From Candidatus Latescibacterota bacterium (GTDB taxonomy: Bacteria; Latescibacterota; UBA2968; GCA-2709665): a DNA stretch of 64,000 nt. This document shows, in pieces, positions 50,905-56,094 of the stretch (its first letter is position 1; each line of letters starts with the position of its first letter). The stretch is taken from the NCBI GenBank assembly GCA_965222075.1, contig OZ244937.1:608001-672000 (forward strand), in the 5' to 3' direction. The translations under genes and the position numbers were made by a program. The notes beneath the pieces were generated by a model that did not search any database, was not told the origin of the DNA, and saw only the letters and a program-made list of their open reading frames with translations.

Positions 50905-52359
50905 TCACCGGACATCGTAGCGCAGCATGCTCACATAGGCTCCGGAGAAGAAGACGAGGGCCCATAAGACTACGACCAACACATCCACCAGGGCCTTTCG
51001 GAGGACTCCGGCGGTGCCCGCTTCCTGAAACGTGAAGCGCGGTATCCCGGCGAGGTCCCACTTCTGCTTGCCATACTTGGCCGGATGGATCCCGCTCAGA
51101 ACATAGCGCTCCGATTTCTCTGTCCTCCACGGCGAGTATATCTGGCGGATATGGTTCCGGATGAAGGCCTCTTCGAAGCTCTGGTGCCGATTGATGCCGG
51201 TTCCGGCCAGGCGGACAACAGTGTTCCGGAACGCGAAGGCGGGCGACAATCGAGCCAGCACAACGGCCAGACGCGTCCGCTGGTCATACTTATTTCGAAA
51301 GTCTTCGTTCAGGCGGTCAATAAGCGGCTGACTCTGGTTGGTGAGAATTTCGTCCCGCGTCTTGAGGTAGTTGCGACGCTGGGCTTCGCGTCCCTCCGGG
51401 GTCCGCCACCATTCTTTTCCGGCCTGCCGGTCCCGCCATTCCCTGCGGGCTTCGCGCCACTTTCTCAGGTACTGGAGTTGGATGGCGTAGCGCTTTGCCT
51501 GGTGTTCGTGAATGGAAGGGGCAGGCCGAAGGGCGTCGGCCGCGATCAGACTCACTTTTGGGACAACCACAACGGTGGTAACCCAGTAGACCAGCAGAAT
51601 CACAAAAGAGGTGGCTGAACGGTGGGTCAGGCACGATGCGAAGAGACCCGCACAGGTGCAGGAGACCAGATAAAGCAAAAAAGCGACGACGATGCCCCCG
51701 AGGCGCACCCATTCAGGGTCGGTGATCCGCACCTGAGGCATCCATAGCAGCACGGCCAGGCCCAGGAGCAGGGGCAGTCCGAAGGCGCAAAGCGAGAGTG
51801 TGCAGATTCCAGCGAATTTGCTCAGCAGCAGCTGATGTTTCGGAACAGGGTACGACGAGACGAGCCGGAGGGTTCCGTTCTCTTTCTCGCCGCAGATCGC
51901 ATTGTAGATAAAGAGCAAGACGAACAGGCTAAGAACGGCCTGGGCCACGTGTCCGAGGTCCAGAGAGGGGAACACCCCCAGGATGGGCTCTGCCTCTACG
52001 GGGCTGCGCCTGAGCCGCCTCTGGGGAGTACCGGTACTGGAGATGGAGCGGCCCAGCGTGGGTTCCAGTCCGCGTATGAAGATGCTCATCTGTGTGGGGG
52101 GTTTGTGCTCAAAGAACCCTATGTTGGTGATCTCGTACCAGGGGTAGTACGGCACCACCCGGTTGGCCTCCTCGATCTGCCGGATGCGCTGTTCGGTTGC
52201 AGCCTGTGCGGAACGGTAGTCCCTGAGCCTGGCCAGATAGTCGGCATATCCGCTGTAGAGGCTCAGCCAGATCGTCAGGGCTCCTATTCCGGTTAGAATC
52301 AGAAAGCGCACGCTGAGAATGTGGTCCAGGATCTCTTTACGGATGAGATGACCGAACAC
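50905..52359 (-). CDS. ABC-2 type transporter permease (paralog of the downstream gene)
   Basis: GTG start after AAGGAGG. Motifs LIRKE and AICGEKENGTLRL; ends LRYDVR. Confidence 0.85.
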   Translation of the reverse strand: MFGHLIRKEILDHILSVRFLILTGIGALTIWLSLYSGYADYLARLRDYRSAQAATEQRIRQIEEANRVVPYYPWYEITNIGFFEHKPPTQMSIFIRGLEPTLGRSISSTGTPQRRLRRSPVEAEPILGVFPSLDLGHVAQAVLSLFVLLFIYNAICGEKENGTLRLVSSYPVPKHQLLLSKFAGICTLSLCAFGLPLLLGLAVLLWMPQVRITDPEWVRLGGIVVAFLLYLVSCTCAGLFASCLTHRSATSFVILLVYWVTTVVVVPKVSLIAADALRPAPSIHEHQAKRYAIQLQYLRKWREARREWRDRQAGKEWWRTPEGREAQRRNYLKTRDEILTNQSQPLIDRLNEDFRNKYDQRTRLAVVLARLSPAFAFRNTVVRLAGTGINRHQSFEEAFIRNHIRQIYSPWRTEKSERYVLSGIHPAKYGKQKWDLAGIPRFTFQEAGTAGVLRKALVDVLVVVLWALVFFSGAYVSMLRYDVR

Positions 52360-52899
52360 AATATTCCTCCTTGCAGACGAAGACCAGGGCGACGCGACCC
52401 CATCACGACCCTGGCCAATCGGCACCAGCACCCGGCCCCAGAACATGCCAGTGCATGTGCGGCGTCACACCGGGAGCCGCAGCATTGGCACGCACGTAAA
52501 ACCCCTCACCATTCTGAAATGAACAATTTTACGATGTCCAACCAACCAGAGAAAAAATAGGGCTTATTGATGCAAACGCAACTTCTTTCTGGGTCTTGCA
52601 CTCAAACCTTTACGACAATTGCGCGAGTTGGCTGCGCTTTCTCCAGAGGCAGAGAAGTAGATGGCTGATTCGATTGATCCCATCTTAATTGAGATAAACA
52701 AATCGCACGTTCCCCTCCAAACCCACCTCACGTTCTACAAAGCGGATACCCGTTGCCTGATGTGTCAGAATTCCCTATCTTAAAAGTATTCAATGGGATG
52801 TTCTTCTTAGTGGATGGATATTCTTTCATTTTCCGGGTGTTTCAAACCAGGTGGAGTGACCGATGTCAACGCGACAGGTTGTTATCGAAGTGCCGGAAA

Positions 52900-53150
52900 G
52901 GGTGTTGCTGGCTGCAGGTCGTTGAGCCCCATTCTGTACCTTCCGAATGGCTGGCGCTGGACCTGGGTGCAGGGGAGCTTGCTGCGCTGGCGCTTGGGCT
53001 GGAAAATCCAGACCGGGTGGTTCTTGTGGATGAGCGGCTGGCACGGCGCACGTATTGGGAGACTCTCAGCCTGCCTACCGAGGCGGTGGAATACGGTTGA
53101 CCAGCAGGGTGGTCCGGCACTACGATGAGTTGGAGGCGCAGGCGGTCGCG
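52900..53150 (+). pseudogene. Degraded PIN-domain (DUF3368-like) toxin fragment
   Basis: LDLGAGE.AALAL......VLVDERLARR, followed by a frameshift/stop. No N-terminus. Confidence 0.6.
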
Positions 53151-53302
53151 AATGCAGGGAGCCCCCGATAGGACAGATTTATCGGGGCTTTTTTTTGTTT
53201 TTTTACGTCTCAGGAGGATACTTTCTTTTGATATGTGCGTCAATTGTTATGAACGCGTTCGAAGCAGGGTATTAACGTGCAGCGTTGCGGAGGGGACATC
53301 CG

Positions 53303-54745
53303 GTGGAGCGACCGGAAGACCGGGATCTGATCGAGCAGACGCTGGCCGGAAATCAGAGGGCGTTTGCCGTTCTGGTGGAACGCTACGGGCGGGAGGTGTA
53401 CGCCCGGATTGGCCGGTGGGTGCGTTATCCGGAGGATGTTGAGGATCTGGCACAGGAGGTTTTTATCAGGGCGTACTCTCGACTGGGGCAGTTGAGAGAG
53501 GTGCGCAGATTTCCGGCGTGGCTTCGGGCGATTGCCGACAATACGGCGCGGGGGTGGCACCGCCGCCGGATTGTGCAGCTTCAACTGGGAGAGGCCCTGG
53601 AGGCCGAATGGGCCGCTGAAACGGGGAACTCGGGAGACGAAGCGGAGGCCCGGAGGATTCGGGCAATGATTCGGGATGCGCTTCGGTCTCTTTCCGAAGC
53701 GCACCGGCAGGTGATTGTGCATCACTATTTTAAAGGATATACGTACGTGGAGACGGCCGATCTGCTGGGCCTGAAGGTGGATACGGTTCGCAGCCGCCTT
53801 CAGAAGGCGAGACGGCGATTGAGAGAGGAGATGATTGCGATGAGAAATGCGGATACACCCATGCAGGCGTTTGAACTGACGCGGAAAGACCTCAGCGCGT
53901 TGCGCTGGGGAATAGCGTTTGTCAGCCAGGATGAGAACCGTCCCATTCTTCAGGGGGTCTGTTTGGATACGGGGGGGCGGGTTGTTGCGACCGATGGCGC
54001 CCGGCTGCTGATCCGGACCGCGGAAGGTCTGAAGAAGATCGCGGCTCCCGTTATCCTGGGGCCCTGGGGCGAGGTTGAGATTCCCGATGCGGAGCGGGCG
54101 ACGCTTTCCATTGGAGAGGAAAGCGCTGTTTTACAGGTTCAGGGCGAACCGGATCGCCCGGTTTCAGTGATAGAGGGGTCTTATGTCAAGTACGAGTCGG
54201 TCATTCCCACGGATGCGCCCGTTTGCTCCGTAACGGTTCAGACGGGTGCGCTGCTGGAGGCAGTCGAACTGATCGGCGAGCATCTGGCGCCCCGACATCC
54301 GGTGGATCAGGAGGAGACGTGGCGATACTCCCCGGCGATGGAAATCCGGCTCTCTGTACCGGACCAGACGCTTTCGATGATCACGGCGCGAAATATGGGA
54401 TATCGCTGTAAGATGCCGGACGGGGAGTGGCGCCCATACGATCCACACAAAGACGCCGGGGAGGGGCCACCCGCGGACAGTCCGGACTGGACTTTCACGA
54501 CCACGGTTCAGGCCCGGGTGGCCATGAATGGGCCGGAGGAGATTTTTCGGATCGGGGTGAACCATGCGTACTGGCGGTCCGGCATTTGCGCCCTTGAGGC
54601 GGGTCGAGAAGAACCGATGGATTTTCGATTTGTGGGAGTACACAAAGCGATTCTGTGCTCACTTCCCGACCGGGAGGATCGAAAGACGCTGGTGATGCCG
54701 TTGAGGTTGAAACGGGACGAAGCGGGTTCGGAGGATAGCGGGTAG
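53303..54745 (+). CDS. ECF sigma-70 factor fused to a beta-sliding-clamp-like (DnaN domains II-III) module
   Basis: Sigma2 EDLAQEVFIRAY..L..L....F.AWL..IA.N; sigma4 Y.E.A..LG....TV.SRL..AR..L. The C-terminal part has DE.RP.L.GV, VATDG.RL, IEG.Y..Y.SVIP, IG.N..Y and terminal VMPLRL. Confidence 0.8.
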   Translation: MERPEDRDLIEQTLAGNQRAFAVLVERYGREVYARIGRWVRYPEDVEDLAQEVFIRAYSRLGQLREVRRFPAWLRAIADNTARGWHRRRIVQLQLGEALEAEWAAETGNSGDEAEARRIRAMIRDALRSLSEAHRQVIVHHYFKGYTYVETADLLGLKVDTVRSRLQKARRRLREEMIAMRNADTPMQAFELTRKDLSALRWGIAFVSQDENRPILQGVCLDTGGRVVATDGARLLIRTAEGLKKIAAPVILGPWGEVEIPDAERATLSIGEESAVLQVQGEPDRPVSVIEGSYVKYESVIPTDAPVCSVTVQTGALLEAVELIGEHLAPRHPVDQEETWRYSPAMEIRLSVPDQTLSMITARNMGYRCKMPDGEWRPYDPHKDAGEGPPADSPDWTFTTTVQARVAMNGPEEIFRIGVNHAYWRSGICALEAGREEPMDFRFVGVHKAILCSLPDREDRKTLVMPLRLKRDEAGSEDSG

Positions 54746-54948
54746 GCGTTTGTGGTTCGTGGACTCCGGGGCAACCGTTTGTGGTTGCCCTTTTTTTTGT
54801 GGTTCGGACATACCGGTGGTGGGTAAAAACGTGTCCGGGTTTTCTCTTTGGGGTTGACATTCGGGCGATCAGGATACATGATACGTCTTTGGTTTGTCGA
54901 AGCCTTTGGACAGCCACGGGAGGCTGCCTCTACGCAAAGGAGACGGTT

Positions 54949-56094
54949 ATGGATATCGAGGCTGTGCGTGTGGGGATTCCAGCGCTGCAGGAGACATGTT
55001 TTTTTAATACGGCGGGCATCGGGCCGATGCCTTCGGCTGTGGTCGATGAGGTGGTGGGTTTGATCCGTCTGCAGGAGGCGCAGGGGCGGTTCCGGCCGGA
55101 TGTGCGTGGGATGTTAGAGGAGCGGACGGAGGGGGCGCGGGGAATCGCGGCCCGGTTTTTTGGGGTGACGCCGGAGGAGATGATGTTTTCACACAGTATT
55201 TCCGATGGGCTGAATACGGTTTCCGAAGGGTTGGACTGGAAGGCGGGAGACGAGGTGATTACTTCGGACCAGGAACATCCGTCGGGCTACCTGCCCTGGC
55301 TGCTTCAGGCTAAGCAGCAGGGGGTGGTGATAAAACGGCTGCGGCTTCTGCCCGAACCGGAGGGGATGGCCGACCGGCTGAGGGCGCTGCTGACGGAGCG
55401 GACGCGCGTGGTGGTGCTGAGCCACGTGACGAGCAGCCTGGGCATCCGGGTGCCTGCGGCGGAGATCGTTCAGGCCGGACACGAAGCCGGGGCGCTGGTG
55501 GGATTCGACGGGGCGCAGTCTGTGGGGCAGTTTCCGATTGACCTTCGGGAGATGGACTGCGATTTTTACGCGGCCACGAGCTACAAGTGGTGTCTGGGGC
55601 CGTACGGGGTGGGCGCTCTCTACGTGAAGCGGGACGTGCTGCCGCAGGTCGCGGTGAGGCGTTCGGGAGCCAAGGCGGTGGACCGGGTGGATATGGACGC
55701 AGGCACGGTTGTTTTCCCGGATACGGCCCGAAAGTTCGAGTTCGGGGCGCGGAATCTGCCGCTGCGGATCGGGTACGGGAGGGCGCTGCGCCATATCGAA
55801 GAGATCGGGACGGAGCAGATCGAGGCGCGGGTGCGGGAGATGGTGGATTATTTCAGGAAACGGACCTCTGAGATCCCGGGGGCCCGGGTGCAGACGCCGG
55901 CAGGGTTTGACGCGGGGGCGGTGAACGTGGCGGTGGAAGGGGCGGACCCGGATGCGGTGTGCCGGACGCTGTGGGAGGAACATAAGATCGTGGCTGTATC
56001 TCCCGCAGGAGGGCTGCGGTTTTCCGTGGCGTTTTTCAACACGCGGGAGGAGGTGGACGGGGTTGTGGAGGCGTTGAAGCGGGCAGTGGAGTAA
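54949..56094 (+). CDS. Class V PLP aminotransferase (cysteine desulfurase/epimerase-like)
   Basis: Motifs EHPS, SHV, DGAQS.G, SYKW..GP.G and FE.G. AAAGGAG RBS. Confidence 0.88.
   Translation: MDIEAVRVGIPALQETCFFNTAGIGPMPSAVVDEVVGLIRLQEAQGRFRPDVRGMLEERTEGARGIAARFFGVTPEEMMFSHSISDGLNTVSEGLDWKAGDEVITSDQEHPSGYLPWLLQAKQQGVVIKRLRLLPEPEGMADRLRALLTERTRVVVLSHVTSSLGIRVPAAEIVQAGHEAGALVGFDGAQSVGQFPIDLREMDCDFYAATSYKWCLGPYGVGALYVKRDVLPQVAVRRSGAKAVDRVDMDAGTVVFPDTARKFEFGARNLPLRIGYGRALRHIEEIGTEQIEARVREMVDYFRKRTSEIPGARVQTPAGFDAGAVNVAVEGADPDAVCRTLWEEHKIVAVSPAGGLRFSVAFFNTREEVDGVVEALKRAVE

Follow-up and report, generated by a model that had tools for sequence, protein, structure and literature searches.

What would a bacterial sigma factor do with part of a sliding clamp? 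The question is raised by one gene in the window, the 64,000-nucleotide stretch of contig OZ244937.1 (Candidatus Latescibacterota bacterium) that was analysed here. The gene lies at 53303–54745 on the forward strand, as do the domain-coding stretches, hairpins, promoter motif and ribosome-binding sites given below for it, and is a single uninterrupted frame of 480 amino acids (aa), opening with a GTG at a position common to the aligned homologues and closing with a stop codon at 54743–54745. An earlier note on this DNA had described the product as a sigma factor of the extracytoplasmic function (ECF) type that carries part of the replication clamp DnaN. The sequence is best explained by a functional ECF sigma factor with a C-terminal extension that descends from domains II and III of the β sliding clamp.

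Residues 1–184 make up a complete ECF sigma factor with both sigma2 and sigma4. Sigma-70 region 2 occupies residues 24–89 (53372–53569; Pfam PF04542 Sigma70_r2, 7e-12), and region 4 residues 121–173 (53663–53821; PF08281 Sigma70_r4_2, 2.3e-14). The NCBIfam model TIGR02937 (sigma70-ECF) matched with 102.4 bits (E = 1.9e-29), above its cut-off of 42.9; this general model was the sole family to reach its cut-off among the best 25 of 104 NCBIfam families. Both regions and the curated score thus place the protein among the ECF (group 4) sigma-70 factors, and the intact sigma2/sigma4 pair in one open frame is as the earlier note had read it. A Shine-Dalgarno-like GGAGGGG (53289–53295) stands 7 nt 5′ of the GTG, and GGAG or GGAGG is found at equal spacing in other loci.

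The remainder of the protein, residues 185–469, is homologous to domains II and III of bacterial DnaN. A Pfam search with the window protein alone returned no DNA_pol3_beta family at E ≤ 1 and left about 296 C-terminal residues without assignment, PF02768 reached E ≤ 0.01 in only 6 of 20 relatives, and the best hit of a single-sequence phmmer search against the PDB had an E-value of only 0.068. The NCBIfam DnaN model TIGR00663 aligned residues 5–139 of the C-terminal 296 aa with its positions 126–269 (E = 5.2e-10), at a score of 38.8 bits that is far under the family cut-off of 137.65. A profile built from 20 relatives matched 55 β-clamp sequences of solved structures (best E-value 1.3e-18), covering domain II in one stretch and the last part of domain III in another; the remaining five matches shown were PCNAs at E = 0.37–0.57. 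Alignment of the family with a DnaN alignment in hhalign gave a probability of 99.95 % (E = 7e-37) and paired module residues 1–285 with E. coli DnaN 123–366. An AlphaFold2 model of the module was confident (predicted local distance difference test, pLDDT, 91.2; predicted template modelling score, pTM, 0.88), and a Foldseek search of the PDB with it listed bacterial β clamps only (best E = 5.1e-16, template modelling score 0.66). These comparisons, of the HHpred and Foldseek kind that the earlier note had proposed, bear out its view that clamp domains II and III alone are present.

The domain II-like half spans residues 185–304 (53855–54214) and includes the pocket strand VATDGARL (53984–54007) and the segment YVKYESVIP (54182–54208); the domain III-like half spans residues 305–469 (54215–54709) and includes VNHAY (54557–54571) and the C-terminal LVMPLRL (54689–54709). 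Both halves are delimited by the profile, structure and hhalign matches. The DnaN hallmarks that had been noticed by eye do occur in order, and map to E. coli R152–L155, T172–L177, F241–P249, N320–Y323 and V360–L366, so that the first observation holds in every detail, the absence of domain I included. A phmmer search of 1.84 billion representative sequences returned 126 matches, the weakest of which (1e-5 to 1e-3) are true DnaN proteins; each of the ten checked has the three Pfam DnaN domains and is matched in its central one. The genome carries a separate true dnaN. The module is not a recent duplicate of it, since BLASTP finds only a 33-aa stretch shared between the two (61 % identical).

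To compare the module with a functional clamp, we used an alignment of 30 family members (286 columns), with residues numbered as in E. coli DnaN via hhalign. In the DnaN dimer, according to the part of PMC11139829 drawn on here, I78 and F106 pack on I272 and L273, and ion pairs form at E298–E304. The family has the sigma domains in its N-terminal 184 aa in place of domain I, so that the partners I78 and F106 are absent, and the other side of the contact has changed as well, I272 being replaced by Glu or Asp in 28 of 30 members and L273 by His in 25. A family-specific PRHP segment follows these two positions in the domain III-like half, and an insertion of about 30 aa (residues about 370–400) occupies the place of the interface strand E298–E304. 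The inner helix α2 of domain II is 6 residues shorter than in DnaN, and the three remaining inner helices hold on average 3.1 Lys/Arg versus 4.4 in DnaN, though this measure is weak. As had been proposed, the protein cannot build the normal dimer ring, because domain I is missing and the hydrophobic pair is replaced. The module resembles DnaN (TIGR00663; Pfam DNA_pol3_beta, _2 and _3) in the homology of domains II and III, in fold and in a largely kept pocket; it differs in the absence of domain I, the polar residues at 272 and 273, the insertion in domain III, the shortened inner helix and the score under the cut-off. With domain I, curated score and dimer interface all failing, it is not a member of the DnaN family.

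The pocket that binds clamp-binding motifs has fared differently from the ring. It is made of 18 residues in two subsites, as described in the section of PMC11139829 consulted, and ten of these are among the 57 columns, out of 286, whose conservation in the family reaches 90 % or more (Fisher one-sided p = 0.0006). In the hhalign mapping the pocket is the best-kept part of the module; both subsites are represented in the sequence, and most of the conserved residues are identical to those of DnaN. Of the residues concerned, R152, G174, V247, P363 and R365 are invariant (30/30), L155 and M362 are kept in 29 members, N320 in 28, L177 in 27 and R176 in 24, and position 323 is Tyr or Phe in 28, which agrees with the claim that the segments lining the peptide pocket are present. 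We read this as a clamp fragment that appears to have given up ring formation and DNA encirclement and still to use its peptide pocket.

A fusion of this kind could be an artefact of assembly, or two genes read as one. In a survey of 168 genomes of the phylum, with a strong match defined as E ≤ 1e-60, 65 genomes carry the fusion, each in one copy. All 65 belong to the four families of the window's own class, where they make up 65 of 132 genomes versus 0 of 36 in the other classes, and 64 of the 65 matches lie in open frames of 422–511 aa, the exception being one partial match of 370 aa. Among 50 close homologues, 44 have sigma Pfam domains, nearly all of these span the module and most are 440–504 aa long; the other six are 278–306 aa. 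The extension after sigma4 is thus about 300 aa long and conserved in the group, where more than 50 aa would qualify as such an extension. More distant relatives, with about 25–33 % identity in the module, have sigma domains in nine of ten cases checked, the tenth being a three-domain DnaN. In two DNA runs, each from a different study, contigs extend without a break from 53373 to 54850 and so cross the junction between sigma factor and clamp. With these contigs and the frame lengths, the suggestion that homologues and read data might reveal two separate genes fails, and the search for the same architecture that had been called for finds it in 65 genomes. The fusion is not an assembly artefact; it is real and conserved. 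Judged by its spread over 65 of 168 genomes and by the nine distant relatives outside DnaN that are all fused to sigma domains, it is also old and stable.

Among the 22 named loci, the title reads Latescibacterota or Latescibacteria for 19, Gemmatimonadota or Gemmatimonas for two and 'uncultured bacterium' for one. A genome of the same genus (loci L005/L028, G060:C228) has an in-frame TAG inside the module that leaves a 366-aa product, reflecting either a pseudogene or a sequencing error. Two further genomes match only over the first 65–80 module residues (G107:C1:5377355-5377591, E = 8e-24; G130:C1:2563690-2563881, 2.5e-20), in open frames of 268 and 278 aa; these may be copies that have decayed or been rearranged. 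Contigs of two metatranscriptome runs from one study, labelled sponge metagenome, are 100 % identical to 54180–54381 over 169–200 nt, which shows presence in an RNA library and is not proof of transcription. The ESM Atlas holds clusters of 196–245-aa proteins named 'putative DNA polymerase III subunit beta' in Fusobacteriota and phages; short clamp-like proteins therefore occur outside the sigma-clamp family.

Among known systems, those that come nearest are ECF41, ECF42 and ECF238, which likewise join a sigma2 and sigma4 core to a long C-terminal domain (SnoaL-like, TPR and Cys-rich, respectively). As in ECFs with C-terminal extensions, at least as portrayed in the sections of PMC7826278 and PMC8999054 drawn on here, no anti-sigma gene is seen nearby; as in ECF41, whose motif is WLPEP, the linker between sigma2 and sigma4 bears a conserved motif (parts of PMC3426412 and PMC8999054); and as in extension-bearing ECFs covered in excerpts of PMC3426412, an ECF-like promoter with a CGTC −10 element lies upstream. 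The extension itself, a two-domain β-clamp fold of about 285 aa, is unlike the known ones (SnoaL, TPR, WD40, Cys-rich, transmembrane). By this analogy the fusion protein is most like an ECF sigma factor that works in the manner of those with fused C-terminal regulatory extensions.

A sliding clamp is also linked to transcription initiation in phage T4, where the gp45 clamp activates the gp55/gp33 polymerase for late transcription. There gp45 forms a trimeric ring of its own, which is loaded on DNA, and the clamp-binding tails belong to the sigma-side proteins. The T4 system thus resembles ours in connecting a sliding-clamp fold with a sigma-type initiation factor, but here the clamp-derived part is covalently fused, is without ring features and itself bears the pocket. 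With PCNA and gp45-type clamps the module shares a count of two domains, and the profile match to PCNA is only the E of 0.37–0.57 given above.

A candidate for the occupant of the pocket is found within the same chain. The linker between sigma2 and sigma4 carries the motif RRRIVQLQL (residues 87–95; 53561–53587), which in 27 sigma-clamp proteins of 26–50 % identity takes the form R-R-x-x-x-Q-x-x-hydrophobic: R87 is present in all 27, Q92 in 26 and a hydrophobic residue (L/F/W/M/Y) at position 95 in 26. In ordinary ECFs this linker is usually variable (PMC3426412, in part), and in ECF41 a conserved linker motif is contacted by the C-terminal extension, as recounted in portions of PMC3426412 and PMC8999054. 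The pattern of clamp-binding motifs begins Q-aliphatic-x-L/M in the relevant passage of PMC11139829, and the Q-aliphatic-x-L/F of the linker fits the first four positions of the consensus. The conserved motif suggests a contact in cis between linker and pocket.

We therefore favour, tentatively and at somewhat less than an even chance, a module that is the sigma factor's built-in regulator, with a pocket that holds a short Q-x-x-hydrophobic peptide, likeliest the linker in cis, and with ligands in trans competing for it. The module would replace a separate anti-sigma factor as an on-board regulator. The pocket between the two clamp domains would hold the peptide, the likeliest ligand being the conserved sigma2–sigma4 linker motif of the same chain, by likeness to the contact between SnoaL domain and linker in ECF41. 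Such a contact may lock the sigma factor into one conformation, and a competing ligand in trans that bears the motif could shift the balance and so switch transcription. Peptide binding, the contact in cis and the direction of its effect on activity are thus what we infer from homology to DnaN domains II and III only, a confident clamp fold, a pocket kept while ring features were lost, the conserved Q92 and hydrophobic residue 95, an old and stable fusion and a neighbourhood in which no anti-sigma-like gene was seen.

Several observations weigh against this proposal. Beyond position 4 the linker departs from the clamp-binding consensus, with Glu or Gly where Phe or Leu is expected. The full-length AlphaFold2 model shows no docked linker, because linker residues 90–111 have a pLDDT below 50 and the pTM is only 0.57. 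We looked for covariation between linker motif and pocket and found none beyond clade structure, Phe variants of the linker co-occurring with both MPMR and MPLR C-termini. The C-terminal MP-x-R decays in the most distant members, in which R365 is Arg in only 15 of 27, and pocket conservation is no proof of ligand binding, because several pocket residues are structural in DnaN. Autoregulation from the upstream promoter motif described below is likewise only an analogy, because that motif is unique in the genome. A complex prediction for the sigma part (1–184) against the module (185–470) scored 0.01 against a mark of 0.32 and is evidence neither way.

The pocket might instead act on ligands in trans without any contact to the sigma core, as a sensor or decoy that captures proteins with clamp-binding motifs, or clamp-targeting peptides, phage proteins or antibiotics, much as the earlier note had suggested for clamp-targeting peptides, toxins and antibiotics. 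The captured proteins could be polymerases, repair factors or replication-control factors, and transcription would be coupled to replication status or to poisoning of the clamp. Pocket conservation applies equally to this alternative. In the genome's own DnaN the pocket strands are almost the same (VATDGARL, YVDYEQVIP, LLMPLRL), so the ligands of the true clamp could fit the module, and the lack of a confident intramolecular contact in the AlphaFold2 model is in its favour. However, it offers no account of the conserved linker motif, genes for resistance, repair or defence are not consistently found nearby in the clades compared, and the weight-matrix and exact-pattern searches reported below revealed no target promoters. 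We consider it rather unlikely.

A further possibility concerns not the ligand but the number of products. The junction between sigma factor and clamp reads GAGGAG-ATG-ATT-GCG-ATG (53825–53842): the internal GAGGAG-ATG that had been placed at about 53830 is found at 53825–53833, with GAGGAG at 53825–53830, the ATG of Met177 at 53831 and a second ATG, that of Met180, at 53840, all in frame. At least 90 % of 30 sequences share Met180, and a Shine-Dalgarno-like word precedes the last Met ahead of the module by 5–16 nt in 17 of 24 distinct contexts. The main start is the weak GTG or TTG in 28 of 32 loci (L005–L038) and ATG in four, a count for which starts were picked by our own rule and in which some loci are one genome fetched twice. 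Some public gene calls of 278–292 aa begin exactly at the junction Met. The weak main start could thus yield the fusion, and the internal ribosome-binding site and ATG a free two-domain protein that competes with the fusion or regulates it, an arrangement that would be compatible with the other readings; given the internal Shine-Dalgarno-like word, the conserved Met180 and the weak main start, a free module could therefore also be made.

Against this, the purine-rich words code for the Lys/Arg-Glu-Met residues conserved where sigma4 ends, and may for that reason serve the protein alone. Short forms of 261–306 aa, represented by 6 of the 50 close matches and several representative sequences, come mostly from contigs of 0.9–4.8 kb, and three of ten clusters of short gene calls that were looked up also hold members of 362–457 aa. 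No stand-alone two-domain copy was found in the 168 genomes of the phylum. With short contigs, longer cluster-mates and 0 of 168 genomes, most of the short proteins were treated as truncated gene calls and rejected as stand-alone forms of the clamp. On balance a second product seems to us improbable.

The cis contact, the competing ligands and the free module can be joined into one speculative scheme, in which the half-clamp is a mimic of the cell's own sliding clamp. Whatever competes for the pocket, be it idle polymerases, repair factors, anti-clamp proteins of phages or natural products directed at the clamp, would release the linker and switch on the sigma response, at a threshold set by free module translated from the internal start. 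We hold this combination, too, to be improbable; if true, it would connect the replication hub directly to the initiation of transcription.

That the clamp-derived part is an inert relic, which binds nothing and merely stabilises or spaces the sigma factor, is very unlikely. Our neighbour and promoter searches identified no ligand, partner or regulon, as such a relic would predict, but the sequence has been maintained across at least a bacterial class, with relatives down to about 26 % identity, and its conservation is concentrated on the pocket. Least probable of all is a ring-forming clamp, in which three modules would build a PCNA-like ring of six domains, the trimer that the earlier note had considered, or a module would pair with DnaN, and tether sigma factor or RNA polymerase to DNA: two clamp domains per chain are indeed the PCNA and gp45 arrangement, and in the full-length model the module follows the last sigma4 helix by only about 3 residues, where, going by polymerase structures, it would presumably sit near upstream promoter DNA, but the Glu/Asp and His in place of the hydrophobic interface pair, the insertion of about 30 aa at the strand E298–E304, the shortened helix α2 and, as a weak measure, the lower Lys/Arg content of the inner helices all speak against it.

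Whichever way it is controlled, the protein is an undescribed variant of an ECF sigma factor with an on-board domain, and its anatomy is clear. Among the papers listed, our literature searches found none that describes a sigma-clamp fusion, nor any on the MerR-clamp fusions that the earlier note mentions, and the words 'clamp', 'DnaN' and 'polymerase III' are absent from the main texts of the ECF classification papers PMC7826278 and PMC7671368, whose supplements may list such a group. The architecture can already be seen in databases, where two close homologues carry a precomputed PF02768 match; public records label the proteins only as sigma-70 family or ECF factors. Within one class of a largely uncultured phylum the family is frequent, and it matters for annotating the genomes of that class, as 65 of 132 carry a fusion labelled only 'sigma-70 family'. 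The clamp-derived extension is a new domain type among the on-board sensor domains of ECFs, a recognised but little-explored signalling route. It is also a new evolutionary use of the β clamp, with the ring dropped and the peptide-docking pocket retained, and this retention suggests a portable peptide-recognition module. Were the ligand a clamp-binding motif, the family would tie gene expression to the state of replication or repair, or to inhibitors directed at the clamp, and could provide a compact peptide-gated sigma switch for synthetic circuits.

The fusion gene is probably monocistronic, standing alone between two terminator-like hairpins. The upstream hairpin (53163–53187, with a stem of 10 pairs) and its T-rich tail, which extends the element to 53197, close the upstream unit, and T runs likewise precede the promoter motif in other loci. 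The second hairpin (54768–54791) and its T run, to 54801, begin 23 nt past the stop codon. Between the upstream hairpin and the start lies the ECF-like promoter motif GGATACTTT-N13-CGTC (53216–53241), which is conserved upstream of orthologues and combines a −35-like GGATAC (53216–53221) with a −10-like CGTC (53238–53241), 16 nt apart. The pattern G[GC]A[TC]AC[TC]TT-N12-14-[CGT][GAC]TC is found in 27 of 28 distinct orthologue upstream regions, mostly 68–87 nt before the start. CGTC is the usual ECF −10 consensus in the part of PMC3426412 drawn on here, and for this reason autoregulation from the motif is, by analogy, a fair guess.

A position weight matrix built from the 27 orthologous promoter sites gives the window site as its top match, a single outlier at 28.9 bits in the 5.36-Mb genome. 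Over the whole genome the matrix gave 46 sites at 12 bits or more versus 47 in the reversed-sequence control, and 2 versus 2 at 20 bits or more. With no excess over the control, these counts point to no regulon; autoregulation, like any wider set of targets, is something we infer. An exact-pattern search of 22 family genomes gave 35 matches versus 7 in the control among the 15 genomes of one genus (g5), the recurrent extra sites being two conserved 26-mers. One of these, read on the other strand, begins ATG GCG CTC TTC GAC and looks like the start of a neighbouring gene. The other, GGATACTTTGCCAACGCCGCTG[GC]ATC, occurs once or twice per g5 genome at scattered places (G052:C1:5452075; G053:C1:1657649, 3518997); it is present also in a genus without the fusion (g4) and confounds promoter searches. 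Both were rejected as regulon sites and are taken, from the start-like codons and the g4 occurrence, to be probable coding sequence. Between the −10-like CGTC and the ribosome-binding site lies a perfect 10-bp palindrome, GAACGCGTTC (53251–53260), with an ACGCG(T/C)G core at the matching relative place in other clades; it could be an operator or an element of the 5′ leader. No Rfam family matched 52300–53400.

By Pfam, the neighbours of the gene in the window are ABC-2 permeases, an aminotransferase, a UMPH-1 nucleotidase and an EamA transporter, and those in other clades include PhyH dioxygenases, sulfatases, DHDPS and a transglutaminase-like protein. The conserved neighbours that had been proposed as a lead did not materialise, no gene being shared across the clades compared. 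No anti-sigma-like gene was seen in the window or in the neighbour clusters checked, from which small or unrecognised ones could escape. Upstream of the fusion gene, about 700 nt at 52450–53160 are without a convincing gene and hold open reading frames that have no Pfam match and look compositionally odd. Downstream, the open reading frame of a class-V aminotransferase is listed at 54781–56094 with a GTG start that overlaps the hairpin at 54768–54791, and its Pfam match does not begin until residue 77; translation probably starts at some point downstream of 54781. A sigma-70-like promoter is found at 54854–54882.

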